64,000 bases of DNA from Myxococcota bacterium (GTDB lineage Bacteria > Myxococcota_A > Polyangia > HGW-17), in the NCBI GenBank assembly GCA_036802685.1, contig DAIRVS010000006.1, forward strand, positions 1,073-65,072. The letters are read 5' to 3'. The notes beneath the pieces are model-generated. The model saw nothing but the letters and a program-made list of their open reading frames with translations. It was not told the DNA's origin and made no database searches. A program made the position numbers and the translations under genes. Of this stretch, positions 2,654 to 64,000 are shown piece after piece; position 1 is the first letter of the stretch; the number at the start of each line of letters is the position of its first letter.

Positions 2654-2967
2654 GCGACACCCCCGAGGTAGCCGGTGACGCTGTCGGCGTTGCCGTTGCC
2701 GGCGTAACTGTCGGACTCGGCGACGATCTCCATGGTCTCATGCCCCAGGGCGCGCAGGGTGGCCATCATGACGGCGGTGGGGATCTCGCCGCACATGGTG
2801 ATGGACCCGTCCGTGATGTAGTCGTGCAGCCCCTCCACGTCCAGCCGGTGGACGTAGTCCGCCAGCGCCGCGTCCTGCTCCCGGGCCACGTCCAAAAGCT
2901 CCCGGTGGACCAGGTCCGTCGTGGTGAGCAGCAGCACGCCCTGACCCGGTACCCCGGGATCAGCCAC
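2644..2967 (-). pseudogene. Memo-family (AmmeMemoRadiSam system protein B-like) C-terminal fragment with high-GC3 codon bias; its N-terminal part is out of frame or missing
   Basis: Translation ...LLLTTTDLVHRELLDVAREQDAALADYVHRLDVEGLHDYITDGSITMCGEIPTAVMMATLRALGHE...SDSYAGNGNADSVTGYLGGVAW matches the Memo C-terminus (SSDLSHW-like, ICG..P and SSVSYAAGAL-like motifs). Upstream in-frame sequence is not Memo-like. A diverged Memo N-terminal remnant (MQFSGAIAAEVLARVEEPDVVNVLASDTDMLG) lies in a different frame at about 3000-3100. Confidence 0.55.
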
Positions 2968-2990
2968 GGGCCCTGCCCCCAGACCGCCAT
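2866..2990. repeat. left copy of an imperfect ~120-bp direct repeat of Memo-gene coding sequence (right copy 6206..6323)
   Basis: Aligning the two stretches by eye gives about 90% identity with no indels and a 43-bp perfect core ccctgacccggtaccccgggatcagccacgggccctgccccca. Nine of ten mismatches are synonymous in one minus-strand frame. Confidence 0.8.
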
Positions 2991-3371
2991 GGGGCCCCCA
3001 GCATGTCAGTGTCCGACGCCAGAACGTTCACGACATCGGGCTCCTCGACTCGCGCGAGCACCTCGGCTGCAATAGCGCCCGAGAACTGCATGCTCGCATT
3101 GGGTGGAGAAAAGTATTTTCCTCCTTGACATCCAGTCAGGGACGAGTATCTTTTTTATTGGTGACCCACAGTGAGCGAAAAAGCATTTTTTCCAGATTTA
3201 TTTGTATATGTTGATGTTCTAACTTTCAACAGCATCGAACAACTTATTTTCTCCAAGACCCGCATATCTTGCTCCCCATTAGTCCGACCCCACTTTTCTC
3301 TGCCATGTTTTGAGGCAATTATGCTTCAATTACATTTTTTGTTTTTTTCCTGAAGGATGACGGTGTAAAAA

Positions 3372-4766
3372 ATGTTGAAAAACACAGGTTTTCTTTTCGT
3401 TCTGCCGTTGCTTCTTTTTGCAAATAATGCTTATGCTGCTTACCATACGGTTTATGGCAAGGTAACTTATATGGAGAAAAGATACAATGGTGGTGGCGAA
3501 TACAACAAAAATTCTAATTATAATAACAACCAACCACTAGTTGGAATTAAAGTGAAGTTATGGGACATGGATGGTAATTGTGTAGATTTTCTGAATAGTT
3601 GTAATGAAACTGATGATGATCTTCTTTCCGAAACAACTACAAACAGTAGTGGTTTTTATTATTTCTACAATATTGGGAACCTTGAAGATATCTACATAAC
3701 AACAAATCTCGAGACCGCTTATTCTAACGTCATGATTAATTCAACAACTGAACTTGTTATTGCATCTCCGGTTAAAACAGATTTCGGAACCGGACAACCA
3801 ACCAATATAAGGTATGACTGGACAGTTAGTTGTTCAAATTATTGGTTATATCCCAATACTAGTTGCAATTCCACCGACGCACTTAACACTGTTTTAGATA
3901 GCTCTCAGACAGTTTCTAATTCGGAAGCTACAGCGTCTGCTAATGTCACAGCGACACAACTGCACGTCGAAGGAAAATTTAATAGTAGCATTTTTTCCTC
4001 TGATACAACCAATTTCTATATCCTCCCGAACAATCCTTCTTCTGCTGCTTGTATGTCCCATTGTTACGATGATGCAAACGGAGACGGTAACCCAGACGGC
4101 AACAATACCGCGTTGCCAAATGGTCAAGATATTTGTGTTTGCACGCCGTATACCAATCACCGTGTTGCACATGAGATCGGGCATTCAGTCATGATGAGAG
4201 CTCTAGGATATCCTGGTTCTTTGTCCACCTGTCTAAATGGTCACAGTTGGAGTCAAATAGACCAATATGAAAAATGCGCAGTTTCAGAGGGATGGGCAAA
4301 TTTTTTTGCTGCCGCGACCTTCTTCTCGGATACTGATACAAGTGCATACTATGTACTTGCTGTGAGAAACATGGAAGGTCTCATCGACTCTTATTATAAT
4401 AATGGCACCTTAAAGGTTTGCATGGATCGCGATACCAGCCCCATGGATGTTGAGGGGAATGTAAGTAGGTTTTTCTGGGATTTATATGACTCTACTTCAG
4501 TTGACGATACTTTCCCAGTTACAACTGGCGAAGGCGATAATCTAAATTTATCCATGGATCAATTGGTCGATATTTGGAGAGAATTTCCCTCTGGCACAGA
4601 TAATCTAGAAGCCAGTGAGTCTGGGTACGACGGAAGAAACATATGGGATTATTTCTACCACGCCAATGCTGGTTTTTCAATCAACGCCGGTGGCCCAATT
4701 TTATCAAATTGCCTTTGTTATCAGAATGGCAATTATGCAAATTGTGCCTATCTAAATGCATATTGA
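3372..4766 (+). CDS. secreted N/S/T-rich protein with an HExxH zinc-metalloprotease motif (HEIGHSVMM), in the low-GC island
   Basis: 464-aa ORF with signal peptide MLKNTGFLFVLPLLLFANNAYA, many Cys and N-x-S/T sites, and AT-rich codon usage unlike the host. Confidence 0.6.
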   Translation: MLKNTGFLFVLPLLLFANNAYAAYHTVYGKVTYMEKRYNGGGEYNKNSNYNNNQPLVGIKVKLWDMDGNCVDFLNSCNETDDDLLSETTTNSSGFYYFYNIGNLEDIYITTNLETAYSNVMINSTTELVIASPVKTDFGTGQPTNIRYDWTVSCSNYWLYPNTSCNSTDALNTVLDSSQTVSNSEATASANVTATQLHVEGKFNSSIFSSDTTNFYILPNNPSSAACMSHCYDDANGDGNPDGNNTALPNGQDICVCTPYTNHRVAHEIGHSVMMRALGYPGSLSTCLNGHSWSQIDQYEKCAVSEGWANFFAAATFFSDTDTSAYYVLAVRNMEGLIDSYYNNGTLKVCMDRDTSPMDVEGNVSRFFWDLYDSTSVDDTFPVTTGEGDNLNLSMDQLVDIWREFPSGTDNLEASESGYDGRNIWDYFYHANAGFSINAGGPILSNCLCYQNGNYANCAYLNAY

Positions 4767-4859
4767 ATTTTTCAATTGAAAAAGCAAGCCCATAGACTTC
4801 TCCGCACTGTGCCTATTATTCTATGTGTGGCCTCTCTTTTACTGCCCACCTTATGTTTC

Positions 4860-5447
4860 TCACTCCCCACACCCTCCCTCATCCAGGCTGTCATGATCTG
4901 GCGTGACCGCGACATCGTGATTGAATCCCGTACGACTTTGATAGAGAGCAAAAGAACGCAGCACGTCTGCAGCAAGAACAGGTGTCAACCGATCACCGCG
5001 TTGAATGTTCACCGTGAATCCTGTGCAGTTAGACGTGAGTTGGGCCTTGAATTCACTCGTGTTTGAACAGCACGGCGCAAGAACCTTTTCAGCATTTTCG
5101 CGCACATCCCTTGGTATTTGATGTTTATTATCTGAAAGTGCAGGGTGGACAAGTTTGTACCTTTTAACTTCGCTCTTGAATGTCCTCTCGAGCATCTCCG
5201 CGTGTTTCAACCATGCGGGGCTCAAAACCGAAGTGAGACGATTCATATTTTTAACAGGGAAATTCACCGTCCCGTCATCGGAGAGAACCGCAAGGTCCAA
5301 TATCGCCGCCCTGATCATGATAACTTCGGCAAAATGAACGTATGCGGATTTCCCGGTCTGGTGGTCCCACCACTTCAACTCATACGAGTGCCCTGGTTTC
5401 CGTGCAGGTTCTAGCTTCACCTCGCATATGGGCACGAGCCGGACCAA
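4860..5447 (-). CDS. hypothetical protein (island cargo)
   Basis: 195-aa ORF in the low-GC block. It is co-directional with, and 26 bp from, ORF 5474..6124, so the two may be one disrupted gene. Confidence 0.35.
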   Translation of the reverse strand: MVRLVPICEVKLEPARKPGHSYELKWWDHQTGKSAYVHFAEVIMIRAAILDLAVLSDDGTVNFPVKNMNRLTSVLSPAWLKHAEMLERTFKSEVKRYKLVHPALSDNKHQIPRDVRENAEKVLAPCCSNTSEFKAQLTSNCTGFTVNIQRGDRLTPVLAADVLRSFALYQSRTGFNHDVAVTPDHDSLDEGGCGE

Positions 5448-5473
5448 CTTTTTATCGCGCGACCGCTCTCCAT

Positions 5474-6124
5474 TTAACCGTACTGCAATATCACACGTTT
5501 GCGCCAGTAAAACGTAATACTTTTCCTTATCTGTACATTTAAATATTTAAATATGTCGCCCGCACTAAGCGGAAGGTGATGAAAACGAACGATCTCGGCA
5601 GGTAGGTACAACTCCGACCGCTGGTAGGAAAGCGCCTGCTTCCCAGCATCCTCGAGGCCATGTCGACCACCGCTGATCGGAACCATCGAAACCTTACGCG
5701 CTGCATCCACTAAGGAAATAAAATCCTCGTCGCCCCTAACTTTATCACGCATGGTACAAGTAGCGACGTGAGCCGCGATCCGAAGAAGCGTCTCACCCTC
5801 CCACACGCCTTCCTTCCGAGAGGACCCGAAAACTGTGCTATCGAAGTCGTAGACGTTCCATGCGGCCAGGGAATCGGCTGCTGCTTCGTGGGCCTGTTGT
5901 AAGTGTGCCCTCGCAGAATCTCGAACCTTCTTGATTGGAATTGAGAGGATGGCAAGTCGCAGAAGATGCAGGAATCCAGCGTAGTCAGGTGCCCTCGAGT
6001 TGAGACGAGCCTTGGCGATCACTATAAAGCCGTTCTGGTCGACGCCATGTTCTTGGGCCAATTCAGACCATCTGGTGAGTTCCGTTCCCTGGCTGACAGT
6101 TTGGGTCAGTAGCGCGCAGTACAC
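5474..6124 (-). CDS. hypothetical protein (island cargo)
   Basis: 216-aa ORF with intermediate GC and no recognisable motif. Confidence 0.35.
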   Translation of the reverse strand: MYCALLTQTVSQGTELTRWSELAQEHGVDQNGFIVIAKARLNSRAPDYAGFLHLLRLAILSIPIKKVRDSARAHLQQAHEAAADSLAAWNVYDFDSTVFGSSRKEGVWEGETLLRIAAHVATCTMRDKVRGDEDFISLVDAARKVSMVPISGGRHGLEDAGKQALSYQRSELYLPAEIVRFHHLPLSAGDIFKYLNVQIRKSITFYWRKRVILQYG

Positions 6125-6740
6125 TCCTTTCGACGGCGAGGGCCTCGTCCCTGGGGACGAACGCGAGCGGCTCGGTGGCGAAGTCCACTACGTAGGAAGT
6201 GGGCGAGCGCCGCGTCCTGTTCCCGGGCCACCTCGAGCAGCTCGCGGTGCACCAGGTCCGTCGTGGTGAGTAGCAGCACTCCCTGACCCGGTACCCCGGG
6301 ATCAGCCACGGGCCCTGCCCCCACACGGCGAACGGCTGGCCCTCGAGTTCGTGGTCCGAGGCCAGCACGACCACCACCTCGGGCACGGTGATCCGGGCGA
6401 ACACCTCGGCCTGCACCTCTCCGGAGTACCGCAGGCTGGCGTGGGGGGTGATCACGGCCGCGGCGTCCCGCCGCTCGCGCACCCCCGTGTCGCGCATGAG
6501 ACCCACGACGTTGCGGTACAGGTCCGCCGGATCCTCGGGGTAGAAGCTGCCCGCGTGCTGCCAGGGCCGCGCCCCCGGATCGTCCAGGCCGGGCTGGGGC
6601 CCCGAGAAGTCGGGGGTCTGGATGTCCTCCCAGCCCGTGGGGGCGGGATCCTCCTCGCACCCTGCGGTCAGGGCGGGCACACAGAGAAAGACGAAAACCA
6701 GGAAAGCACGAAAGACAAAGAATAACCGGGAGGACGGCAT
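6063..6740 (-). CDS. Memo-family (AmmeMemoRadiSam system protein B-like) lipoprotein. The N-terminal ~135 aa are intact; the 3' part changes frame inside the repeat, so this is a possible pseudogene or frameshifted gene
   Basis: MPSSRLFFVFRAFLVFVFLCVPALTAGC...WQHAGSFYPEDP...ITPHASLRYSG...VVVVLASDHE matches the Memo N-terminal half (HAGSWY and PHAGY.YSG motifs). The conserved downstream segment GVLLLTTTDLVHRELLEVAREQDAALA is in the -1 frame, and the central ~100 aa of canonical Memo are absent. Confidence 0.5.
   Translation of the reverse strand: MPSSRLFFVFRAFLVFVFLCVPALTAGCEEDPAPTGWEDIQTPDFSGPQPGLDDPGARPWQHAGSFYPEDPADLYRNVVGLMRDTGVRERRDAAAVITPHASLRYSGEVQAEVFARITVPEVVVVLASDHELEGQPFAVWGQGPWLIPGYRVRECCYSPRRTWCTASCSRWPGNRTRRSPTSYVVDFATEPLAFVPRDEALAVERSVLRATDPNCQPGNGTHQMV
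6206..6323. repeat. right copy of the imperfect direct repeat (partner 2866..2990)
   Basis: See the left copy at 2866..2990. Confidence 0.8.
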
Positions 6741-6834
6741 CGGGTGACCTCGCTCGGAAACAACCTTCCCTGAAACCCGTCTCATGTCAAGTCGCATGGC
6801 CCGGTTTCCCCTGAATGAGCCCCCCTCCATCTCC

Positions 6835-6864
6835 AAATCAAAATCGAAATCGAAATCGAAATTC
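6835..6864. repeat. hexanucleotide microsatellite (AAATCG)n, 5 units
   Basis: aaatca aaatcg aaatcg aaatcg aaattc, in the divergent promoter region between the Memo-like gene (minus strand) and the histidine kinase (plus strand). Confidence 0.9.
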
Positions 6865-6991
6865 CTCCCTCCCTTCCCAGATCCCTTCCACGAATCCCTT
6901 CCCCTTCCCGATCCAATGGATCGTCAAGATTCCTCATGACAAGCGCTCTGGAAAGGAGTATTTTCTTTTGGAAATCGGGAAATATTTTCTG

Positions 6992-8740
<1,749 letters not shown>

Positions 8741-53687: not shown

Positions 53688-55136
53688 CTAGATTTCCTGC
53701 ACCGCTTCGGGTTTCTCCGGCAGGCGCTCCATCGTGAGGCCGGTGAAACCGTAGAAGATCGACACCAGCGGGTTGAACCAGTTGAGGATGGCCCAGGGGA
53801 GGTACAAGAGCGGGGAGACGCCCAGGGTGGCGGCCATGAAGGCGCCGCAGGTGTTCCAGGGGACCAGCGGCGAGGTGAGGGTGGCGCTGTCCTCGAGGGC
53901 GCGGGAGAGGTTGTGGGGCGCGAGGCCCAGCCTCTCGTAGGTGGACTTGTACATGCGGCCGGGGAGCACGATGGCGATGTACTGGTCGCCGGCGACCACG
54001 TTCATGCCGACGGCGGTGCAGACGGTGACCAGCACCAGGCTGCCGGTGCCGTGCACCAGCCTCAGGATGGCCCGCGTGATGGCCTGCAGGAAGCCGGCGG
54101 CCTCCATGGCGCCGCCGAAGGAGACCGCGCACAGGATCAGGGCCACGGTGTCCATCATCTTGTCCAGGCCGCCGCGGGAGAGCAGGTCGTCGAGGGCCGC
54201 GCTCCCGGTGTCGATGGTGAAGCCGCCCTTGGCCGTGGCCAGCACCGACTTCCAGGAGGCGTCCTGGAACCACACCGCGAAGAGCATGCCCAGCAGCGCG
54301 CCGAACAGGATCGACGGGAGCGCCGGGCGCTTCGTGGCCACGAGGCCGATGACCACCAGCGGGGGCAGGAGCAGCCACGGGGTCACGAAGAAGTGCGCGC
54401 GGATGGGGGACACCACGTCGGTGGCGGGGCCGCCGCCGCCGCCCCAGTCGGCGAACAGCCCGATGACGAAATAGGCGGCCAGCGCGACGAGCAGGCTCGG
54501 ACCGGTGGTCCACACCATGTGGCGGATGTGGGTGAAGAGGTCGCTGCCGGCCACCGCGGGCGCGAGGTTGGTGGTGTCCGAGAGCGGCGACATCTTGTCG
54601 CCGAAGTAGGCGCCCGAGACCACGGCGCCGGCGGTCATGGGCGCGGGCACGCCCAGGGACGCCCCCAGGCCCATGAGCGCGAGGCCCACGGTGCCGGCGG
54701 TGGACCACGAGCTGCCGGTGGCCAGCGACACCACCGAGGAGATCAGCGCCGCGGTGAACAGGAAGTAGGTGGGGCTCACGAGGGAGAAGCCGTAGACGAT
54801 CAGCGACGGCACGATGCCGCTCTGGAGCCAGGAACCGATGAGCAGTCCCACGGCCATGAGCAGCAGGATCGCCGGCAGCGTGGACGCGATGGACGCGGTC
54901 ATGGCCTCGAGGGTGCGCTCCCAGGTCACCTTCCGCCAGCGGGCCAGGGCGGCGACCAGCGCCGACGTGAAGATCAGCGCCAGGTGGGGCTGCAACTTGA
55001 AGCGCAGGACGGTGAGGTACAGGGCGCCCAGCAGGAAGACCACCGGGACCAGCGCGAGGACCAGCGGAGGGAGGCCGGCGTCGGTCGCGGGACCGCCGGT
55101 CGGCGCCGGTGCCCGATCGTTAGTAGGGGAGCTCAT
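53688..55136 (-). CDS. Na+/H+ antiporter NhaC family
   Basis: 482-aa protein with about 12 TM helices and an NhaC-like sequence. Confidence 0.7.
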   Translation of the reverse strand: MSSPTNDRAPAPTGGPATDAGLPPLVLALVPVVFLLGALYLTVLRFKLQPHLALIFTSALVAALARWRKVTWERTLEAMTASIASTLPAILLLMAVGLLIGSWLQSGIVPSLIVYGFSLVSPTYFLFTAALISSVVSLATGSSWSTAGTVGLALMGLGASLGVPAPMTAGAVVSGAYFGDKMSPLSDTTNLAPAVAGSDLFTHIRHMVWTTGPSLLVALAAYFVIGLFADWGGGGGPATDVVSPIRAHFFVTPWLLLPPLVVIGLVATKRPALPSILFGALLGMLFAVWFQDASWKSVLATAKGGFTIDTGSAALDDLLSRGGLDKMMDTVALILCAVSFGGAMEAAGFLQAITRAILRLVHGTGSLVLVTVCTAVGMNVVAGDQYIAIVLPGRMYKSTYERLGLAPHNLSRALEDSATLTSPLVPWNTCGAFMAATLGVSPLLYLPWAILNWFNPLVSIFYGFTGLTMERLPEKPEAVQEI

Positions 55137-55833
55137 AGCGGACGAACAGGCCGGCGTACCAGGGCATCATCTCGAAGTTGAAATCCAGGTCCTCGGGCTC
55201 GTTGCACTCGCCGCCGTCGGCCTCGTAGAAGCAGGCGTCGCTCCAGTTCGGGTACCAGAAGCGGCCCATCAGGCCCAGGTGCAGGCGCTGGGCGACGCGC
55301 ACGCTCAGGCCGGCGACGGCCCCCACGGTGACGCCGGTGGCGCGGAAGATCAGGTGCTTGCCGTCCTCCTCGTCGAAGACGCCGTCGGCATAGACGGTCG
55401 CGTAGCCGAAGGCGGCCGAGGCGAACAGTTCGAGGCGGCTGCCCAGGGGCAGGATCCCGCGGGCCTCGAAGTTGAGCACGTAGTCGTACAGGGTGTCGAT
55501 CTGGTCCGGGGCCATGCGCCCGTAGTGCACGTTGAACCCCAGCGCGAAGTGGCGGTTCATGCGGTACAGCGCGGTGAGGTCGGCGCCCCAGGACGGGCCG
55601 CCCTCGGAGCAGAATTCGCCGGAACAGGCGTTGAGGCCGCCGCCGGCCTCGAACAGCAGCGAAGACACGGAAGGCCTCGACGCCGGGGGCTTCACTTCGG
55701 GCGCCGCGGCGGGCGCCGCGGCGGGCGTCGCGGCGGGCTTGTCGGCCGCGGCGGGCTCGGCCGCGCGCGCGGGCACAGCCAGAAAGACGGTCAGCAACAG
55801 GGAAATCACAAGGGCGGCATCAGGGCGTCGCAT
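55120..55833 (-). CDS. outer-membrane beta-barrel protein
   Basis: Signal peptide, Ala/Pro-rich linker, alternating amphipathic beta-strands, and a C-terminal aromatic residue (..RYELPY). Confidence 0.55.
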   Translation of the reverse strand: MRRPDAALVISLLLTVFLAVPARAAEPAAADKPAATPAAAPAAAPEVKPPASRPSVSSLLFEAGGGLNACSGEFCSEGGPSWGADLTALYRMNRHFALGFNVHYGRMAPDQIDTLYDYVLNFEARGILPLGSRLELFASAAFGYATVYADGVFDEEDGKHLIFRATGVTVGAVAGLSVRVAQRLHLGLMGRFWYPNWSDACFYEADGGECNEPEDLDFNFEMMPWYAGLFVRYELPY

Positions 55834-55992
55834 GCTTCACAGCCTCGGTTCAAGCGGGTGTCGGTCTCGCGTTCCGGTGCATTACAACGGCCGACAGCCT
55901 ACCACGAAAGCACCCCGTCCCGCAACAGGTTCGGCCACGTTCAGGGGCAGGAAAACGCCCGTCACACTGCAAAAATAAATCCCGGGTCTTCC

Positions 55993-57837
55993 TCAATCAG
56001 ACCGGTACTCCAGGTCTTCCACGCCCTTCAGACGACCATTACCCGACACCATCAGGAACGTGCAGACATCGAAGACGATCGACCCAAGTTCTTGCGCTGC
56101 TCGGTCCAGACTCGAACCTTTTGACCATCGATGTCTCTTCAAGCTCAGGCGAAACTTCGGCGGCAATTCGAGCGGCACATTGAAATTCACATGATGAGCA
56201 ACACCTTTGGGATCGAGCCCCGTGATGTACAGACCGTCGTCCCGCAGGAATGCGTGCATGATGGGCCTTCCCTCGAAGAGATCCCCCAGGGCGATGCCTT
56301 GCCAGAACAGCGCCAACGGCACTCGCAACTGAAATACGCCCATCTTGGCCGTCTCGAGAGGGTTTGGCTGCACGGGGAAATACCAGTTCAGCACGAGGTT
56401 CTCACGATCGAGCTCCGGGGTCGAAGTCAACATGGCCGTCTGGAGTTGTCGCTCCAGTTCGAGCAGAGAAACTGGCAGAGGACCAGCGGGTATCACCGGT
56501 GGCGAATAATCGTATCCGGTAAAAACCATGCACCAGTGCTTTTGCAGAGCCTCTTTTCCATAGCTTCTCCCCAACCTGAGCCGGAGACCGGATTCTCCTG
56601 GTCCACTTTCCCGCGCCGTGACCCAAGGATTGGCCCGCAGATCTTCACGGAGCTTGGCACTCAAGTCCTGCAGAAACCTCGGAGGCAACGGCTCGGGCCT
56701 TTCGTCTTCGTACCAATGGGATACCACGTTCGCCTCTGGCGCATCGATCCCTTCATCGGGAAGTGGAGCGACAGCCTCCGACCGCAGTTTCACCGAAGTC
56801 TTTCGCTCGAGACGCTCAGGAAATTCAGACTGATACATTAAGGCGCGAAACACAATCCGCTCCCCTCGCGAGAGCAAGCTGGCCGGGGATAAATACGCTG
56901 TGCGTGCGCGCGTTTCACGCTGGGCTTTCGAACTCGCGGGCACATCCGTCACCAGCGGTCGTCGCAACGACTGCCGTCGGAAAAACCGATGCAACACCAA
57001 CTGCCGTGTGGTGGGTCTGACTTTCCATTCCTTCTCCAGGAGTCTCAGATTCCAGTCCCTGTCCTTCGCCACCGCTAAAATGGCTTCTCCTCGCTGGCAG
57101 TTCGCGTAATACCCCCAGTTCTGGTGCAGGACCTCCGAACGCTTCCAACGCCGGACCAAGTCCAAGGGGTTGGTCGTCATCAGGAAAAGGCCCGTCCAAT
57201 TTCCATCGATGGAAACCAGGGTGGCCATCATATCGGGCGTGCCGTCCACGCGGTCCAGGGACTGCGCCAAGGTTCGTCCAGGCTCCTGGAAGCTGTCCAT
57301 TCCAAAAACCAGCGTGTGCAAAGAGAGACGGAACAGAGACGGCTGCGGCTCGTCTTCGACGTTGCGCCCCAAATGGATGAAGGCGACGGATGCCTGCGAC
57401 GGTTTCCCCGAAAAAATGGTCTTCCTTTGTTCCGCCTCTTTCGAGATGAATACGCCTGAATCCTCGAGATAGGAAGACATGACCAGCCGATGGAGACGGA
57501 ACCGTTCTTCTCCGGACACGGTGGACAAACTCCCACAGAGCAGAACGAACCCGCCCTCGATGACCGGCTCTTCCTGGTACAGTCTTTCGACCGACTCCAT
57601 GAAGAGTTCCTGGTTTTTTTTCAACACCCGGGAAACTGGCGACGACATTCTCTCGCTTGTGAACATGCCGCGGTCGTCCAGCCAACGTCGGTGTCCGGTT
57701 ACGCCCCACAATTCCAGAGTTTCCACGAATTCCCGATACTCCCGGCACTGCCGAGGATTTTGGTACGACCAAATCACCTCGTCGACAATCGTGGGAATTT
57801 GTTGCCAATCCGGTTCCTGAAACGCGATACGGGCCAT
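55993..57837 (-). CDS. hypothetical protein (614 aa) of intermediate GC, divergent from the giant orphan gene
   Basis: Long ORF with no recognisable motif; the start was set at MARIAFQEPDWQQ; codon usage is atypical for the host. Confidence 0.45.
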   Translation of the reverse strand: MARIAFQEPDWQQIPTIVDEVIWSYQNPRQCREYREFVETLELWGVTGHRRWLDDRGMFTSERMSSPVSRVLKKNQELFMESVERLYQEEPVIEGGFVLLCGSLSTVSGEERFRLHRLVMSSYLEDSGVFISKEAEQRKTIFSGKPSQASVAFIHLGRNVEDEPQPSLFRLSLHTLVFGMDSFQEPGRTLAQSLDRVDGTPDMMATLVSIDGNWTGLFLMTTNPLDLVRRWKRSEVLHQNWGYYANCQRGEAILAVAKDRDWNLRLLEKEWKVRPTTRQLVLHRFFRRQSLRRPLVTDVPASSKAQRETRARTAYLSPASLLSRGERIVFRALMYQSEFPERLERKTSVKLRSEAVAPLPDEGIDAPEANVVSHWYEDERPEPLPPRFLQDLSAKLREDLRANPWVTARESGPGESGLRLRLGRSYGKEALQKHWCMVFTGYDYSPPVIPAGPLPVSLLELERQLQTAMLTSTPELDRENLVLNWYFPVQPNPLETAKMGVFQLRVPLALFWQGIALGDLFEGRPIMHAFLRDDGLYITGLDPKGVAHHVNFNVPLELPPKFRLSLKRHRWSKGSSLDRAAQELGSIVFDVCTFLMVSGNGRLKGVEDLEYRSD

Positions 57838-57990
57838 TTTTCGTACTCCATGATTACCAGCCCAACTTGTCATTCGTCGACCGCAGACGTTTCCACGGAC
57901 GCGTAAACGAACAAAGACTGACAAAGAATTTTATGATTTTTTTCTTTTGAAATACAGTATGATGACGCGTCTTGTTTTGAGGAATCAACA

Positions 57991-60900
57991 ATGACCAACA
58001 AGACCAATAAATATAATTATAGCTTATTGTTTTTCCCGGATCAAAAAGTCGGGAAATCGAAAATGGCCTTTTTGCAGCACAAGTTGCTGGCCAGAGGTTT
58101 CGTCGATTTCCGGGACTCCGACCGAAGCCTTCTCCATCGTGATGATACCCTCCTCGTGCATGACTTCTTCAGCACAGCAGACAGGGATGATCAGCTATTT
58201 CTGGGTTTCTATTTGGATGGGTTTCCGGAAGATGACAAAACCTTGACGATACAGGATTTTGCCAAAGGCAAACATGACCAGAGTGGAAAACTGGAGGATC
58301 TGTTTTTTTTATCGGCATCCAGGAAAATTCTTTGTTGCATCGTTGTGCCGGACGAGATAAAAATCATCACGAAAAAGTTGCCCATGTTCCAACGCAGGTC
58401 GGACCAATCGATCGCCGTGGTGTTTATCCATTGTCATGCCGACTCTGGCCTAGGTAACCTCACCTCTGAGTTGTTCTCCATTTTGATGAAATTTATGACT
58501 TCCAACCACACGCACCTTGATAAAGCCTATTTGGATACATTTTATTATTATAGTGATGATTACTTTCCATTCTTGCAGAATTTCGGTGCGTTCGAAATTT
58601 CCGTTGGCTCATGTGAAATCCAATGTCTGGATGAATACAGACCTCCAATAAGAAAAAATCGGCAGGGCGTGGACGCCTTGAAATTGGAAAACCTCGAAAG
58701 GCACACATTGGAACGAAGCCGGATGGACTGGCAACTCGCGACTCCCGCCATGCCCCTACCTCCTGCAGAATTGAACTCCCCGAAACCGGAAATCCAGTTG
58801 TTGAAAACGACGAAGGAAAAGACTCTGCTCCATGAACTCGATAAGCTCGGCCGACAACTACAGGTTGTAATCAAACAGGTGCACCAGGGAAATGCGTCCG
58901 GAGCTCTCCAAAACCTGCTGGAAGTGATTGAAAATCTGAAAGAAATCCAGGACCCCGGAGAAGTCGTCCATCGTATGCTCTTTTTTGCCCTGCTCTGGTA
59001 CGGGAATCTCTGGTTGAACAGGAAAAACTATGACAGTGCCCTGCTAGCCTGGGAGGAGGCAATATCCGTCCAGGAGCGATACGCAGGCGGGCAATATTAT
59101 TCCCAAGAACAGTCATTGTTCATCTATGATGCACTGAGTTATATATATTTTAAAAAAGACAATTTCGATGCCATGGAATTTTTCATTGAAGAGAAATTCA
59201 AACTTCTGGAGAAACTGCCTGACCATGATGGACCGTTGAAGACCATTTACCTGAACACTCAATGTCAAATATTAATACTTTTGCTCAAAAATGCTGAAAT
59301 AGCAAAGGCATTGACGATGTCCAGTCAACTACTGCAGGCCTTTTTTTCCGGGGAGCATGAACTGCCATCACATTGGCAGGTCTTTCAATTGGTCTGGAGC
59401 CTATACACCGAAGCAGCGAGCAGATGCAGGAACATCGACGGATGGCTGGAGGCAAGCACCGCGAAAGCCGGATTATTGAACTCTCTCGCTCCCCTGACTG
59501 AATCGACCTGGCAAGAGGAGTTGTTCACCGACACCGAAATCGAACGCTCGATCGGATGGGTTTTCCATGAAATTCCCAATCGCTTCATGGATCCCGACAA
59601 CCAACAGCGCATCCAAACCATTCGAAGGAAATTCGTCGAATCGCCCTGCCCCCCAGCCCTCCAGCAAAAAATGCTCAACTGGGCTTTTCATGTTGGGTAT
59701 TTTTACTTGAGAAATCAACAACTTGAGCGGGCCCACGAGTTCTTTGAAATCGCAAGAAAACATCTGACGGAATTTCAACTGGACCCTCGCACGATGGAAC
59801 ATGTCTTCGTGCTCTTTTATGAATTCGCTGGTGCGGCGGCCCACACTTCAGGTGATGCATATGCCGCATTTTTCTGGAGCAAACGAGAGTATGACTATTT
59901 CTCCACTGACAATCAAGAACCGGGCAAACTGGCCTCCTGCTTGTATCGGTGGCTCTATAGTTCAATTCGTGTGCAAAACCAAAATGGAATCGAAACGGCA
60001 GTGAGTGCGGCATCTCCCTTGCTGGAATTGCCGGTTTACCCAGATGTGTACGAAGTGGATCCACTTTTACTTTGCAAACTGTACCTATTGTGCACCAAGC
60101 AATTGCAGGAAAAGGACCGCGATGTGAACACGCGGTTGATCCGCCTAAACAATGAACGAATCCTGCGAGTCACGGAAGATCCCAAATATTCGCTTCAAGA
60201 AGTCGCAAGTCTATATCTGCAATTCTATCAGAACTTCCTGACATCCACGCGTGGCGCGGCCTTTTTATCCCTGAAACGTCTATTGAACCGATACTGTACG
60301 AAAAAGGATCCCTCGGATCAACGCGAAGAATGTTTTCTAATCATGATGAAGACCGGCATTCTGATTCAATACATGATTGCACTAGTTCACCCTTCATATT
60401 ATGTTCTTTTTTCTAATATCGTCCATGTAATCCGAATGGTTGAATCTCCCCGCCAGGACCAGTTCCATCTGCTTGAATATTATTTCCTATCAATGTATTA
60501 CCTTGAAAAAAAGAACCAAGAGCAAGTATTACCTCAAGCCCTGCGAAAATACCTTAGCCTGGACAGCCAATTGTTACTGCAAAAATGCACCCTGAAAGAC
60601 CGAACCCTGGTTCGTCCAGAGCTCTTTGAGGCCATTCATAAGTTAATTGACTCTCATGTGGAAAGTCGTTCATTCAACAGACAGGAGGAACTGTATCGAG
60701 TCATTTTCAGCGCTTGTTTTTTGGCATCGATGAATCCAAGCGAAGATGACCTGCTCAGCCAATTGGCCATTGCCGTCGAGCGAATCCCCGAGCAGAACCT
60801 CAAATACGGCATCAACAAGCAAATTGCCAAACTGCTCCATGAATGGACGCCTATCAATCCAAAGAAGTTCATTCCGGAGTTTGTGCGATCCGTGAAAAAC

Positions 60901-62031
60901 CTAATGGAAGCCAGTCAATACGTTGCAGACCGTTCACCTTTTATGGAATTATTACTGTTTCATGAAAACCAGTTGTTTGACCCGAAACGCCCCATCAGTG
61001 ACAACACGATCATTTCCACTCAATGGCGATTGGTGGACCTTTATTTTCAGAACAACGACATAAATCGTGCAAACCGTATTTTTGACTTGAATGTGAAAAA
61101 TATCACCACTTGTTTCAACAAGCCCCAATTGGAAATACTCGAATTGGTTAATCAGATTGGTGAATGCAAATCCAGATTGGATAAGTTCAAGCCTCTTCAA
61201 AAAGAATCGAGAAGCAGTCTGCAGGTTCTGGCCAGGGTGTTCAGGGAAAAGGTATTCGTCGAGTCATCCCCGTCGCCCCCTTTGCACATATTGAACGAGG
61301 CCTACCGGATGATTCTGATGATTGAAATTCACCTGGACGAACCGAAAGACGTATGGGAACTACTGGAGAAAGACCTGGCCCGATGGTTTCACCTAGGCTA
61401 CAACTATTTCCATGTTTTTTCCTCGCTGGTGCTGGACATCTCTCAAAAGAGCTCCCAAATGGAAAGGAATCCGGAGAACGGCGATCCACACATTGATTTC
61501 ATCCTGAAGGCTTTTCCCATCATTTTAAAAAACACGCAGGATCCCCGCTGCGGCGAAGTATTCATAAAAGAAGCCTTTTTCCGGACTCACGATGACAAAT
61601 GCTTTAGTACTTATAGGGATATAAAGCTAGACGAATTACTTCAACAACACATAAATAACTCTATATGGAATGAAAATGTTATTCTAATTTTATCCTATCT
61701 CCACAAAAGAAATTACCGTCTGGTACATCCGGAAATAGTCGCCCGATACTCCCTGGAGTTGCTGAAAAAAGCCCTCGGGGCAGTTCGTGATCCCGAGACC
61801 GGTGAAGTGATGAATCGTTTCGAACAGTATCCAGATGGTGCACTGTATGAGCCAAATATTTTGGCATTGGCTGCCATATACAGCCAATACCACAGTTGGT
61901 GTTTCGATGGAAATATTCTTGGGTTTCTCAGCAAGTACCAGTACCGTTTCAAGGAAAAAACCAAAAACCTGAAACTGGACGATGGCGTGAAAAAGTATGT
62001 AATTTTCGCGCTCGATTTGCTCCCTATGTGA
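57991..62031 (+). CDS. giant (1346 aa) predicted all-alpha protein of unknown function in a low-GC island
   Basis: Uninterrupted 4-kb ORF with AT-rich codon usage, no Walker or catalytic motifs, and a composition suggesting repetitive helical (TPR/ARM-like) architecture. Confidence 0.6.
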   Translation: MTNKTNKYNYSLLFFPDQKVGKSKMAFLQHKLLARGFVDFRDSDRSLLHRDDTLLVHDFFSTADRDDQLFLGFYLDGFPEDDKTLTIQDFAKGKHDQSGKLEDLFFLSASRKILCCIVVPDEIKIITKKLPMFQRRSDQSIAVVFIHCHADSGLGNLTSELFSILMKFMTSNHTHLDKAYLDTFYYYSDDYFPFLQNFGAFEISVGSCEIQCLDEYRPPIRKNRQGVDALKLENLERHTLERSRMDWQLATPAMPLPPAELNSPKPEIQLLKTTKEKTLLHELDKLGRQLQVVIKQVHQGNASGALQNLLEVIENLKEIQDPGEVVHRMLFFALLWYGNLWLNRKNYDSALLAWEEAISVQERYAGGQYYSQEQSLFIYDALSYIYFKKDNFDAMEFFIEEKFKLLEKLPDHDGPLKTIYLNTQCQILILLLKNAEIAKALTMSSQLLQAFFSGEHELPSHWQVFQLVWSLYTEAASRCRNIDGWLEASTAKAGLLNSLAPLTESTWQEELFTDTEIERSIGWVFHEIPNRFMDPDNQQRIQTIRRKFVESPCPPALQQKMLNWAFHVGYFYLRNQQLERAHEFFEIARKHLTEFQLDPRTMEHVFVLFYEFAGAAAHTSGDAYAAFFWSKREYDYFSTDNQEPGKLASCLYRWLYSSIRVQNQNGIETAVSAASPLLELPVYPDVYEVDPLLLCKLYLLCTKQLQEKDRDVNTRLIRLNNERILRVTEDPKYSLQEVASLYLQFYQNFLTSTRGAAFLSLKRLLNRYCTKKDPSDQREECFLIMMKTGILIQYMIALVHPSYYVLFSNIVHVIRMVESPRQDQFHLLEYYFLSMYYLEKKNQEQVLPQALRKYLSLDSQLLLQKCTLKDRTLVRPELFEAIHKLIDSHVESRSFNRQEELYRVIFSACFLASMNPSEDDLLSQLAIAVERIPEQNLKYGINKQIAKLLHEWTPINPKKFIPEFVRSVKNLMEASQYVADRSPFMELLLFHENQLFDPKRPISDNTIISTQWRLVDLYFQNNDINRANRIFDLNVKNITTCFNKPQLEILELVNQIGECKSRLDKFKPLQKESRSSLQVLARVFREKVFVESSPSPPLHILNEAYRMILMIEIHLDEPKDVWELLEKDLARWFHLGYNYFHVFSSLVLDISQKSSQMERNPENGDPHIDFILKAFPIILKNTQDPRCGEVFIKEAFFRTHDDKCFSTYRDIKLDELLQQHINNSIWNENVILILSYLHKRNYRLVHPEIVARYSLELLKKALGAVRDPETGEVMNRFEQYPDGALYEPNILALAAIYSQYHSWCFDGNILGFLSKYQYRFKEKTKNLKLDDGVKKYVIFALDLLPM

Positions 62032-62051
62032 ATATTTATGGAGTATTATTA

Positions 62052-63188
62052 TTGATTCCCTCCATCCACGACGAGCGGCTTCGAATAGTGGCAATTTCGG
62101 GTCGCCCGATCGATTCCCTCGGTGGCGCCGAACGATCACTGGCTCGGTTATGTAAGGCCTTGTCGGCTCATCACGATTTGCAGTTGTTGGCGCCAACAAC
62201 AGATGGTGCCACGATAACAAATGATGGTAGGGAAGATTTCTATTTATACAATGATGTCATGAAAAAACTCGAGTCAGTTGGCGCAGTTGATATCATATAC
62301 CTTGGCAGCCACTTCATGCTGAAAACTCCGACTGCGTTTTCAAGAATGAAAACTCTATTTCCAACAGCCAAGCTTGTCCTGAAGGAGACCACAGCTGGCA
62401 AACTGATTCGTGTGCTCGCACGTCTGGAGAAGCAGGAAGCAAGCCAGATTTTGCGAGACCTGGACGCCATTGTCTGCACCTCGTATAGAATTTGGCATGA
62501 CTATCAATATCTTTCAGGATTCAATGGCCAATTGGAACTGATTCCCAATGGTGTCGACACCCGGCTTTTCGCGCCTGTGACGGAGGAAACGCAGACAAGG
62601 ATCCGCCGCCGTCTGGGTTTGGACACTTCTCGACCACTCGTCATCTTTTCCGGCCGATTCGCGGAAAAGAAAAATCTCGATGTGATTTATGGCGCCTGGC
62701 TGGACATGGAGAGACATTTTGGAGATTGGGCCCAATTGGTGCTGGTCGGCAAGATCCACAAACACTACGATGCGGGTATTGTGCGCCTGATGCGTGAAGA
62801 CCTGCGTAACGTGAAGTTTATTGGGCCGTTCTCGAGGGACGAAGACTTGGCATCCTGTTACCAGGCCGCCGACTTTTTTTTGGCGCCCACTTCCAGGGAA
62901 GGTCTTTCCAATGCATTTCTGGAAGCATCGGCTTGCGGTCTCTACCCAGTTGTCACGGCAATCTCTGGATATGAAGATGTCATCACGACACCGAAGTCGG
63001 GCATGTTGGTGGAAGAACGCAATACATCTGACGTCATCCGATGCTTGAAGATGCTGAACCTAAATCCCGACACATACCGCCGGTACGCTCGGGACTGCCT
63101 GAGGCCTCATATCGTCTCAAATCACGACATCCACCATGTCGCACAATTGTATCATAATTTATTTACCAGATTGCGCGAGGTCAGATGA
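62052..63188 (+). CDS. family 4 (GT-B) glycosyltransferase
   Basis: The C-terminal half carries the GT4 signature ..FAPTSREGLSNAFLEASACGLYPVVTAISG... The start is uncertain (TTG at 62052 or GTG at 62088). Its stop overlaps the next start (ATGA). Confidence 0.65.
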   Translation: MIPSIHDERLRIVAISGRPIDSLGGAERSLARLCKALSAHHDLQLLAPTTDGATITNDGREDFYLYNDVMKKLESVGAVDIIYLGSHFMLKTPTAFSRMKTLFPTAKLVLKETTAGKLIRVLARLEKQEASQILRDLDAIVCTSYRIWHDYQYLSGFNGQLELIPNGVDTRLFAPVTEETQTRIRRRLGLDTSRPLVIFSGRFAEKKNLDVIYGAWLDMERHFGDWAQLVLVGKIHKHYDAGIVRLMREDLRNVKFIGPFSRDEDLASCYQAADFFLAPTSREGLSNAFLEASACGLYPVVTAISGYEDVITTPKSGMLVEERNTSDVIRCLKMLNLNPDTYRRYARDCLRPHIVSNHDIHHVAQLYHNLFTRLREVR

Positions 63189-64000
63189 AGTTTGAGCGAA
63201 AGATGACACTCGATCAGGCGTGTGAAACAGCCCGGCGCGTGGCCGTCACGGCACTGGCGACACAGGTCGCCGGTCTGCCTCAGGGAGGACACCCCTGCGG
63301 GTTTTTACTGTGTGGGTCAGCGGCTGATTTCGGAAGTTTCACGGTCCATTCCGATCTTGACCTGCATGTTCTGGCACCCAATGTTGCCATCGGAGAAGAG
63401 CTCGCCGCTCAACTGAAACAGGCATGGGACCGGTTGCCTGTTCCTCATCCACCACTGAGCATCAGTTTGCAACTTCTTCCCGGTGCGATTGATGACCCGT
63501 ACTGGCGTGTCGCACTCTGGTTGGGTTCCGCGTCAAATCCTTTGCGGTTGCAGATCATCCAAACCTGCCTTGAATCGGATTGCCGTCGTTCCCATCTGCT
63601 GGAATCCTTTTTCGAGTATCTGGCATGCCGTCTTACCCCCACGCGACACAACCTGCGGACGCATCCTGGCGCACTGCGCGCCCTTTGGTTGATGAAGCAC
63701 ATCACACAAACCGGACTACCCAGTTTCAGCGAGGAACCGATCGATTGGCTGGGAAACCTGATGAACGAAGGTGGATTTCCCGGCGAGCGAATCACATTCA
63801 TCCTTCAATTCGTTCAACGGTTGCGATTCGCCCGTTGCGTTCCGACATCAGCCTCCCATGATGGTTGCTTTCCGGTGAATGAACCATGGGGGAAGTTGTG
63901 CCGGGATGAGGCGTGCCAATGGTTGATGCAACTTGAGCAATCGGTTCCCCCTCTCTCCCTGGCGCTGAAAGATCTCTATCATGTCCGGTTTCAGGAGTTG
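63185..64000 (+). CDS. nucleotidyltransferase-fold protein (minimal NTase motif GS-x11-DLD), 3'-truncated by the window edge
   Basis: Open frame from the ATG at 63185 to the window end; LCGSAADFGSFTVHSDLDLHVLAP matches the pol-beta NTase hG[GS]x9-13Dh[DE]h signature, and a helical region follows. Confidence 0.6.
   Translation, partial: MKFERKMTLDQACETARRVAVTALATQVAGLPQGGHPCGFLLCGSAADFGSFTVHSDLDLHVLAPNVAIGEELAAQLKQAWDRLPVPHPPLSISLQLLPGAIDDPYWRVALWLGSASNPLRLQIIQTCLESDCRRSHLLESFFEYLACRLTPTRHNLRTHPGALRALWLMKHITQTGLPSFSEEPIDWLGNLMNEGGFPGERITFILQFVQRLRFARCVPTSASHDGCFPVNEPWGKLCRDEACQWLMQLEQSVPPLSLALKDLYHVRFQEL

Follow-up and report, generated by a model that had tools for sequence, protein, structure and literature searches.

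What does the low-GC DNA at the end of a 64,000-nucleotide stretch from a Myxococcota bacterium encode, and which of its genes belong together? (The stretch is from assembly GCA_036802685.1, contig DAIRVS010000006.1, positions 1,073 to 65,072; we call the whole of it the window, and GC is G+C content.) A sequence-only reading of the window had proposed that three of these genes form a unit: a 1346-amino-acid orphan protein (the giant), a GT4 glycosyltransferase, and a nucleotidyltransferase (NTase) whose gene runs past the end of the window. We find a different unit. The GT4 and the NTase, which we call X, are followed by a radical S-adenosylmethionine (SAM) enzyme and a PHP-family phosphoesterase, and our data largely establish that these four genes are what is conserved and that they form a horizontally mobile cassette. 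The giant is absent from all of the other loci that bear the cassette. We tentatively propose that the four genes form a compact operon that makes or tailors a glycosylated nucleoside or nucleotide, with the logic of a radical SAM enzyme paired with a phosphatase.

An exact look-up of the 1346-amino-acid protein found a contig (L001) in the European Nucleotide Archive (ENA). L001 is identical to the window across an overlap of 16,010 nt and extends 3 kb past its end. (Window coordinates are L001 coordinates plus 47,990, and positions beyond 64,000 are given as window equivalents.) The expectation that the system continues beyond 64 kb was right: X ends at 64402, and the genes for the radical SAM enzyme and the PHP phosphoesterase follow. 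The four genes are:

62052 to 63188, plus strand: GT4 glycosyltransferase, 378 amino acids, GT-B fold, retaining-type
63185 to 64000, plus strand: NTase X, 405 amino acids, of which the first 272 codons are in the window; the gene ends at window-equivalent 64402
window-equivalent 64399 to 65691 (L001 16409 to 17701): radical SAM enzyme, 430 amino acids, PolH/AprD4-like
window-equivalent 65688 to 66506 (L001 17698 to 18516): PHP phosphoesterase, 272 amino acids, TrpH/YciV-type

All three junctions (GT4/X, X/radical SAM, and radical SAM/PHP) are ATGA overlaps of a stop codon and a start codon; the first of these, at 63185 to 63188, had already been read from the window. The order of the genes recurs in five other metagenomic loci, with all four genes in two of the five and part of the cassette in the other three:

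L003: SPASM radical SAM protein, GT4, X, radical SAM, PHP, zinc-ribbon FGE-sulfatase protein
L004: phage-type AAA_24 ATPase, 166-amino-acid open reading frame (ORF), GT4, X, radical SAM, PHP, convergent TPR protein with a double zinc ribbon
L005: X, radical SAM, PHP
P0006 locus, on a 113.7-kb contig: 345-amino-acid unknown protein, GT4, X, radical SAM, two convergent ATP-binding cassette (ABC) exporters; without PHP
L006, high-GC, the sixth locus: radical SAM and PHP, with the same ATGA overlap

Overlaps of 4 nt are found at most junctions in these related loci. Between loci, the radical SAM enzymes are 52–56% identical, the GT4s 49–51%, the PHP proteins 45–48%, and the X proteins 33–38%; X has only four other clusters of homologs, all in that range, and is the fastest-evolving member of the cassette. 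The PHP gene is occasionally dispensable. In all, we found six cassette loci in a search space of billions of predicted proteins; their GC ranges from 0.46 to about 0.70.

We also scanned for relatives of X and the radical SAM enzyme, using their alignments, in three other collections. These scans were seeded by short patterns and were not exhaustive, so absence means that nothing was found by those patterns. No relatives were found in one genome from each of 185,579 species or in the viral contigs of IMG/VR, and metagenome contigs yielded one extra locus. With tblastn, there were no hits in phage records and no relative of X in plasmids.

In L004, the AAA_24 (Sak4-like) ATPase gene is at 3 to 596, and the convergent gene at 6343 to 7083 encodes a MalT-like TPR protein with a double zinc ribbon at its end. 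Upstream of the GT4 gene (about 1080 to 1700) are several short out-of-frame ORFs, which may be a decayed gene. We considered a TIR-like reading of these frameshifted fragments, which was not confirmed by Pfam.

The identification of the GT4 from the window alone was correct. Both halves of the GT-B fold are above Pfam's gathering scores (Glycos_transf_1, 80.1 bits vs. a cut-off of 26.4, E = 1.8e-22; Glyco_transf_4, 34.5 bits vs. a cut-off of 28.5, E = 2.6e-8). The E-x7-E motif, which is a defining feature of the GT4 family, is present as E283-GLSNAFL-E291 and is invariant in three cassette GT4s. The nearest solved structures are sucrose-phosphate synthase (SPS) Tll1590, PimB', MshA, GlgA, and GlgM. 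A match to Pfam's "GT4-conflict" (E = 1e-3) is below the cut-off and is faint in L003, and we dropped it as evidence of membership. The gene probably starts at the TTG at 62052, which has GGAG 8 nt upstream and gives an N-terminus that agrees with the homologs. The alternative is a GTG at 62028, which would give a GTGA overlap with the giant's stop codon. Because the TTG is 20 nt beyond that stop codon, the giant and the GT4 share an operon, but the translational coupling that had been claimed for this pair is not established.

X has the GS-x11-DLD motif that had been noticed in the window: G44-S45-x11-D57-L-D59 is invariant in five sequences. So is D104, 45 residues downstream, which we infer to be the third metal ligand. 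No NTase model in Pfam or NCBIfam matches X at E ≤ 1, and no sequence in PDB matches it. X is a new family, recognised by no profile library. From a predicted structure, we suggest that X is a single-domain nucleotidyltransferase with a pol-beta fold that resembles GlnE and DrrA, as the similarity extends past the minimal NTase core into a helical domain. The model, from an alignment of four sequences, has a predicted local distance difference test (pLDDT) score of 65. The specific match to GlnE and DrrA was not reproduced by Foldseek, and a fold search of BFVD with X gave generic NTases only.

The radical SAM enzyme scores 60.6 bits against Pfam's Radical_SAM (cut-off 29.5). AprD4 is its best match both among solved structures (E = 3e-12) and in NCBIfam (E = 7.7e-12), which places it at the superfamily level only. 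Its cluster motif is Cx4Cx2C (C-SHRE-C-GY-C), as in the enzyme of L005 (1236 to 2528; C-PYRG-C-DY-C). The 52–56% identical enzymes of L003 and L004 have the canonical Cx3Cx2C at the same place, and all three cysteines are conserved. No B12-binding domain in Pfam matches the enzyme at E ≤ 1, and the alignments to the B12-radical SAM models of NCBIfam are partial and all far below the cut-offs.

The best annotated relative, from a search that covered plasmids only, is a radical SAM protein from plasmids of Mesorhizobium huakuii and M. loti (28% identity over 376 amino acids, including the N-terminal domain; pairwise E = 2e-45). It is encoded with a TruD-like pseudouridine synthase, a MurA/NikO-like enolpyruvyl transferase, a 2OG-Fe(II) oxygenase, a class I/II aminotransferase, a carbamoyltransferase, and a Cys-type (PTP-like) "tyrosine phosphatase." This gene content points to a C-nucleoside cluster of the polyoxin/nikkomycin/malayamycin type. 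The cluster that we studied is on the M. huakuii plasmid NZ_CP050298.1 (274456 to 293556), and the same cluster is on M. loti CP050294.1. In the record, the MurA/NikO-like gene is labeled "hypothetical protein" and the PolH-like gene "radical SAM protein." We considered the Mesorhizobium "tyrosine-protein phosphatase" as a homolog of the cassette's PHP protein; it turned out to be a Y_phosphatase3 protein and unrelated.

The PHP protein scores 28.7 bits against Pfam's PHP (cut-off 26.4). It aligns over its full length with the pAp phosphatase Cv1693 (2yb1; residues 2–246 vs. 2–251), with 9etk, and with RNase AM (7ug9). Its invariant residues are H7, H9, D14, H35, E59, H70, H186, D243, and H245, which give the pattern of metal ligands HxH...D...H...E...H...H...DxH.

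What might these four enzymes do together? We propose, as a possibility that falls somewhat short of probable, that they are a minimal small-molecule pathway that would draw on the common pools of nucleotides and sugar nucleotides. The GT4 would transfer a sugar from an NDP-sugar to a phosphorylated acceptor, most plausibly a nucleoside monophosphate (NMP) or a sugar phosphate, as SPS, MshA, and GlgM suggest. The radical SAM enzyme would carry out radical chemistry (a rearrangement or a coupling) on the glycosylated phospho-intermediate, as PolH does on a 3'-O-substituted UMP and AprD4 on an aminoglycoside sugar. The PHP enzyme would remove a phosphate or phosphoester, as PolJ does after PolH, and X would attach an NMP to a hydroxyl group on the intermediate or on the product, as activation or as decoration. 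Such a pathway would yield a modified glycosyl-nucleoside or nucleotide that acts as an antibiotic, an antiviral, or a signal.

We infer each of these steps; a small-molecule pathway that acts on nucleotides is the best-supported reading. We favor it because of the Mesorhizobium relative of the radical SAM enzyme and its gene set, because the relatives of the PHP enzyme are nucleotide-specific, because the nearest solved relatives of the GT4 act on small phosphorylated acceptors, and because the P0006 locus has two ABC exporters and no PHP gene, in keeping with a final phosphatase that is dispensable and a product that is exported. The precedent for the pairing is polyoxin biosynthesis, in which PolH cyclises 3'-enolpyruvyl-UMP and PolJ then takes off the 5'-phosphate (PMC5365060). 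Tunicamycin clusters, which are compared below, are a second precedent for such a set of enzyme classes.

Several points weigh against this proposal. No member of the cassette has a known enzyme activity or product. Four enzymes are very few for a natural-product pathway, and a NikO-like or other scaffold-forming enzyme is not present in the cassette. The window's radical SAM enzyme has the Cx4Cx2C spacing instead of the canonical one. The link to PolH depends on a 28% identity to an uncharacterised protein whose role is deduced from its neighbors, and as the search behind it was of plasmids only, there may be closer relatives with another function. Finally, the neighbors in L003 and L004 (the TPR protein with a zinc ribbon, the zinc-ribbon FGE-sulfatase, and the AAA_24 ATPase) fit conflict systems at least equally well.

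If the cassette does make a modified nucleoside or nucleotide, it would rank among the smallest known self-contained pathways for tailoring nucleosides. With four genes in 4.5 kb, it could be expressed and mined directly. It would also add a new NTase family and a PHP enzyme in the role that unrelated phosphatases have in polyoxin biosynthesis. Rarity and foreign DNA are what would be expected of conflict-related or niche-specific chemistry.

Is the surrounding DNA foreign to this genome? We are highly confident of the anatomy of the island and the cassette as described here. The features of the island outside the cassette, and the host gene to its left, are:

55120 to 55833, minus strand: host gene, outer-membrane-protein-like (OMP-like), GC at third codon positions (GC3) of 0.93
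55834 to 55992: left junction of the island, intergenic, from the host OMP-like gene to the stop codon of the 614-amino-acid gene
55993 to 57837, minus strand: 614-amino-acid protein (gene call and ORF), divergent from the operon, GC 0.57, GC3 0.67
57838 to 57990: divergent intergenic region, AT-rich, GC about 0.36
57991 to 62031, plus strand: the 1346-amino-acid giant, with an N-terminal part of about 230 amino acids, a Pro-rich linker, and a long body
window-equivalent 66750 to 66896 (L001 18760 to 18906): possible 48-codon ORF directly after the PHP gene, with the sequence MSDETDKDNPVLESDPNKVSGSDTSKGGNIGVSLKAGVPIQSQGASLC

The positions of the 614-amino-acid and 1346-amino-acid ORFs are as given in the sequence-only reading, which had also described a horizontally acquired low-GC block at the edge of the window, and this description holds. 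GC in 1-kb segments is 0.65–0.74 across most of the window, 0.575 and 0.537 at 56–58 kb, and 0.43–0.50 at 58–63 kb. The DNA had been described as AT-richer from about 57.9 kb. The strong drop is indeed at 58–63 kb, but the change already begins at the 614-amino-acid gene, whose composition is intermediate, as had been noted. Overall, the GC of the island is 0.43–0.57, vs. 0.68–0.74 for its flanks. Codon usage is not uniform with the rest of the genome either: in an analysis by codon position, GC3 is 0.92–0.97 for six flanking host genes, vs. 0.67 for the 614-amino-acid gene, 0.53 for the giant, 0.56 for the GT4, 0.58 for X, 0.57 for the radical SAM gene, and 0.57 for the PHP gene. It is largely settled that the island came from a donor of about 45–55% GC into a bacterium of about 70% GC.

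At the left junction, GC goes from 0.71–0.78 to 0.53–0.60 (200-nt windows, L001 7700 to 8100). On the right, about 430 nt of low-GC sequence lie 3' of the PHP gene. The final 100 nt or so of L001 are GC-rich again, and in them we read the 3' end of a minus-strand gene that is rich in GC3. Since host-like sequence is back at window-equivalent 66950 or so, about 3 kb past the end of the window, the island is about 11 kb long (from about 55.85 kb in the window to window-equivalent 66.95 kb) and is flanked by two host genes, which extends the block originally seen. These borders are largely established, as is the division of the island into two transcription units: the 614-amino-acid gene and a divergent operon of five genes (giant, GT4, X, radical SAM, and PHP). 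The intergenic region at 57838 to 57990 presumably carries the promoters of both.

We looked for the marks of a mobile element. The window contains no tRNA, none of the island's ORFs has an integrase or transposase domain (Pfam and NCBIfam), and we found no convincing flanking direct repeat, given that about 100 nt of the right-hand host flank could be compared. Rfam gave no riboswitch or other RNA in the window, L001, or L003–L007, and in scans for promoters and terminators the counts of sites were not above those in shuffled sequences.

Several other observations concern the island and its surroundings. A GC-rich 12-nt tandem repeat (GCCGCGGCGGGC-like, at least 6 copies) is at 55679 to 55768 (L001 7689 to 7778), close to the 5' end of the OMP-like host gene next to the island. 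A contig from an independent assembly (L002; Logan contig SRR6007444_4329) runs from exactly the ATG of the giant's gene to 80 nt past the PHP gene. Its ends coincide with both AT-rich edges of the operon, where there may be strain variation or a branch in the assembly graph. The 48-codon ORF has a GGGAG ribosome-binding site, a promoter-like TTGACA-17-GATAGT at L001 18581 to 18609, and, at its stop codon, a hairpin that resembles a terminator. Neither L003 nor L004 conserves this ORF, and the counts of its promoter and terminator motifs are no higher than in shuffled sequences.

The window also contains a second low-GC insertion (2856 to 6329, GC 0.39–0.51). It is bracketed by a 132-nt direct repeat with 89% identity (2856 to 2987 and 6198 to 6329), a duplication within a host gene's coding sequence that gives two copies of the peptide PGVPGQGVLLLTTTDLVHRELL[D/E]VAREQDAALA. 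Its cargo is a 464-amino-acid secreted protein that is rich in Asn, Ser, and Thr and has a HEIGH zinc-protease-like motif (3372 to 4766, plus strand), and two unknown ORFs, at 4860 to 5447 and at 5474 to 6124 (minus strand).

How do the two orphan proteins of the island relate to the cassette? The 614-amino-acid protein has no match in Pfam, NCBIfam, PADLOC, the sequences in PDB, plasmids, or phages, and no detectable similarity to the giant. The giant was described as an orphan without a recognisable catalytic domain, and our searches agree. A word-indexed search of 5.8 billion clusters found no homolog except the giant itself. An exhaustive HMMER search of 1.84 billion representatives with residues 1–1200 found one match, P0008, which is a 284-amino-acid C-terminal fragment with 68–71% identity to the giant. 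There were no usable matches among the sequences in PDB, in Pfam with the protein in four pieces, in plasmids, or in phages. Across the 285 codons that can be compared with P0008, dN/dS is about 0.28, so the giant is a real gene under purifying selection. As a practically true orphan that is under such selection, it is a test case for giant lineage-specific proteins.

The giant had been taken for a long solenoid. This is weakly borne out by its helical hydrophobic periodicity, which is about 3 standard deviations above shuffled sequences. Its composition is Leu-rich and Gly-poor, and the body is probably alpha-helical and TPR-like. However, the matches to TPR_2 (E = 5.7e-5, 23.4 bits vs. a cut-off of 27, at about residues 332–361) and to a SPO22/ZIP4-like model (16.6 bits vs. 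a cut-off of 27.5) are below threshold, and a single-sequence AlphaFold model of residues 1–280 has a pLDDT of 30 and was not used for a fold search. A body of helical repeats is thus no more than plausible. The most hydrophobic 19-residue stretch of the giant (GILIQYMIALVHPSYYVLF..., encoded at 60331 to 60390 of the window, about residues 781–800; mean Kyte-Doolittle score 1.93) could be a buried helix of a repeat or a segment that inserts into the membrane.

Where the giant's only homolog is encoded (locus L007), the next gene is convergent and no GT4 gene follows. It is largely established that the giant is a separable, lineage-specific neighbor, or local accessory, which lies outside the conserved cassette.

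One could imagine that a new class of glycosylated, radically rearranged nucleotides or nucleosides, made from the ordinary pools of nucleotides and NDP-sugars by a mobile pathway of four enzymes that has not been described before, serves as an antiviral or antibiotic effector, with fast-evolving lineage-specific giant repeat proteins such as this orphan as the sensor or regulator. We consider this combination doubtful.

Could the cassette instead modify a macromolecule? X might nucleotidylylate the Tyr, Ser, or Thr of a protein, or some other polymer, as a switch. PHP would be the eraser (compare the HD domain in GlnD, or SidD for DrrA), the GT4 and the radical SAM enzyme would decorate the same target, and the variable large neighbors (the giant, the TPR protein of L004, and the FGE-sulfatase of L003) would be targets, scaffolds, or regulators. 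X does resemble GlnE, DrrA, and MNT, and repeat or zinc-ribbon proteins adjoin the cassette in three loci. But no neighbor is conserved across loci, and the homolog of the giant is found without the cassette. Also, the radical SAM enzyme and the GT4 are related to small-molecule enzymes, and the resemblance to GlnE and DrrA comes from a model of moderate confidence and was not reproduced by Foldseek. We therefore consider a switch unlikely. If the cassette does modify a protein, it would be a new multi-enzyme system of post-translational modification.

We also think it unlikely that the cassette is an anti-phage or other conflict system, in which a modified nucleotide would be a viperin-like chain terminator or a depletion product, or the NTase would make a signal that PHP degrades, with the giant as the sensor. 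Prokaryotic viperins are a precedent for radical SAM enzymes in nucleotide chemistry. The defense interpretation had been raised from the window alone, and some observations favor it: the cassette is on an island of foreign composition and its distribution is very patchy, with six loci; also, in L004 it is beside the AAA_24 ATPase and the TPR protein, which matches a TPR model in PADLOC. On the other hand, PADLOC (PADLOC-DB 2.0) gave no match for the giant, the 614-amino-acid protein, the GT4, three members of X, the radical SAM enzyme, or the PHP protein. We recognised no effector, such as a nuclease, pore, TIR, or protease, and the scans of viral contigs and the searches of phage records did not find the cassette. 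The neighborhood of the P0006 locus looks like ordinary chromosome (phosphate ABC transport, a GH123-like protein, and the ABC exporters).

Maturation of a peptide that is synthesized on the ribosome and modified after translation (RiPP), with the radical SAM enzyme, the glycosyltransferase, and the NTase acting on a peptide such as the one from the 48-codon ORF, seems very improbable. There are weak matches of the radical SAM enzyme to ApyD and CUAEP-tail models, L003 has an extra SPASM radical SAM gene upstream, and the 48-codon ORF has the sites described above. But no small ORF is conserved between loci, which makes a RiPP unlikely, and there is no protease, RRE, or leader-recognition domain. 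The promoter-like and terminator-like sites are not more frequent than in shuffled sequences.

We give as little credence to the idea that the junction of host and island is an assembly chimera, with low-GC genes from another organism of the same metagenome. The ENA contig has low coverage (its name gives cov 7.7), and L002 is confined to the low-GC DNA, running from the giant to PHP. But the window and the ENA contig, identical throughout their overlap, both contain the left junction; the composition returns to that of the host at the far end of the same contig; the changes in composition are in intergenic regions; and this genome does acquire such DNA, as shown by the second low-GC insertion with its 132-nt repeat. 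A chimera would leave the nature of the cassette unchanged.

A surface-polysaccharide module had also been suggested; in such a module, or in one for a glycolipid, the GT4 would build an envelope glycan that the other enzymes tailor. An ordinary exopolysaccharide or glycolipid locus is effectively excluded, because Wzx/Wzy-type export, polymerase, and priming genes are missing from all three of the homolog loci whose flanks can be read (L003, L004, and P0006). In no locus are there genes for Wzx, Wzy, or Wza-c, for a priming transferase, polymerase, or acyltransferase, or for a second glycosyltransferase, and the window's island, L003, L004, and the P0006 locus have no ABC-type polysaccharide export. 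A recognised membrane domain is absent from all four proteins. The matches that could favor such a locus (of the GT4 to GlcNAc-phosphatidylglycerol synthase, stp2, and EpsE, among its best in NCBIfam but all far below the cut-offs, and of the radical SAM enzyme, weakly, to the HpnJ and ladderane-lipid models) are generic, at the level of the superfamily. We give this idea hardly any weight.

How, then, does the cassette compare with systems that are known? X shares 8–12% identity with GlnE and with DrrA/SidM of Legionella in structural alignments, and neither family is matched at the level of sequence (Pfam and NCBIfam, at E ≤ 1). Unlike GlnE and DrrA, X has its own strongly conserved C-terminal motif (MGLAFNR.TP ... 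RPL.RRRC..H), and it is a single domain, whereas GlnE has a tandem arrangement.

AprD4, the radical SAM diol dehydratase of apramycin C3'-deoxygenation, is the best match to the core of the cassette's radical SAM enzyme, over residues 188–374 only, and the score against the AprD4 model is 44.8 bits vs. a family cut-off of 500. The sugar on which AprD4 acts is installed earlier in its pathway. Unlike the AprD4 system, the cassette is not accompanied by an AprD3-like reductase or by genes for an aminoglycoside scaffold.

The cassette's PHP enzyme resembles the TrpH/YciV-type enzymes (the 3',5'-nucleoside bisphosphate phosphatase Cv1693 and RNase AM), with which it shares the metal-binding His and Asp residues across the full-length alignment. 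Its scores in NCBIfam are 61.6 for the pAp phosphatase (cut-off 400) and 39.9 for RNase AM (cut-off 375). As these are far below the cut-offs for equivalogs, the cassette's enzyme is a divergent subfamily, which always adjoins the cassette's radical SAM gene.

As in octosyl acid formation by PolH/NikJ and PolJ/NikL, a phosphatase is paired with a radical SAM enzyme whose N-terminal domain, of about 190–220 amino acids, is non-canonical. This likeness runs via the Mesorhizobium relative (28% identity over 376 amino acids) and not via a direct comparison with the sequences of PolH or NikJ. The phosphatase in the cassette is a PHP enzyme and is unrelated to the Cys-based PolJ type. Unlike the polyoxin and nikkomycin pathways, the cassette has no enolpyruvyl transferase, dioxygenase, or aminotransferase, and has a GT4 and an NTase instead; none of the partner genes of PolH (the NikO-like enolpyruvyl transferase, PolD/K, and PolI) is in any cassette locus. 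Because the defining features that we tested are absent, we place the cassette outside the polyoxin, apramycin, GlnE, and defense families.

Tunicamycin clusters, which we compared by gene list (PMC7143919), combine the same classes of enzymes to link a nucleoside with a sugar and tailor them: a radical SAM enzyme (TunB), a family-1 glycosyltransferase (TunD), phosphatases (TunG and TunH), and ABC export (TunI/J). TunB is a MoaA/SPASM-type radical SAM enzyme and is not like AprD4 or PolH, and unlike tunicamycin clusters, the cassette has no dehydratase, epimerase, deacetylase, or acyltransferase. As in tunicamycin clusters, ABC exporters adjoin the cassette, in one locus (P0006).

We found no description of this combination of genes in the searchable literature, which is not proof of its absence. 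The superfamilies of all four enzymes are already known, and the island is an ordinary kind of object. What is new is the invariant, translationally coupled combination of enzymes, an NTase family that is outside all profile libraries, and the extreme rarity of the cassette.

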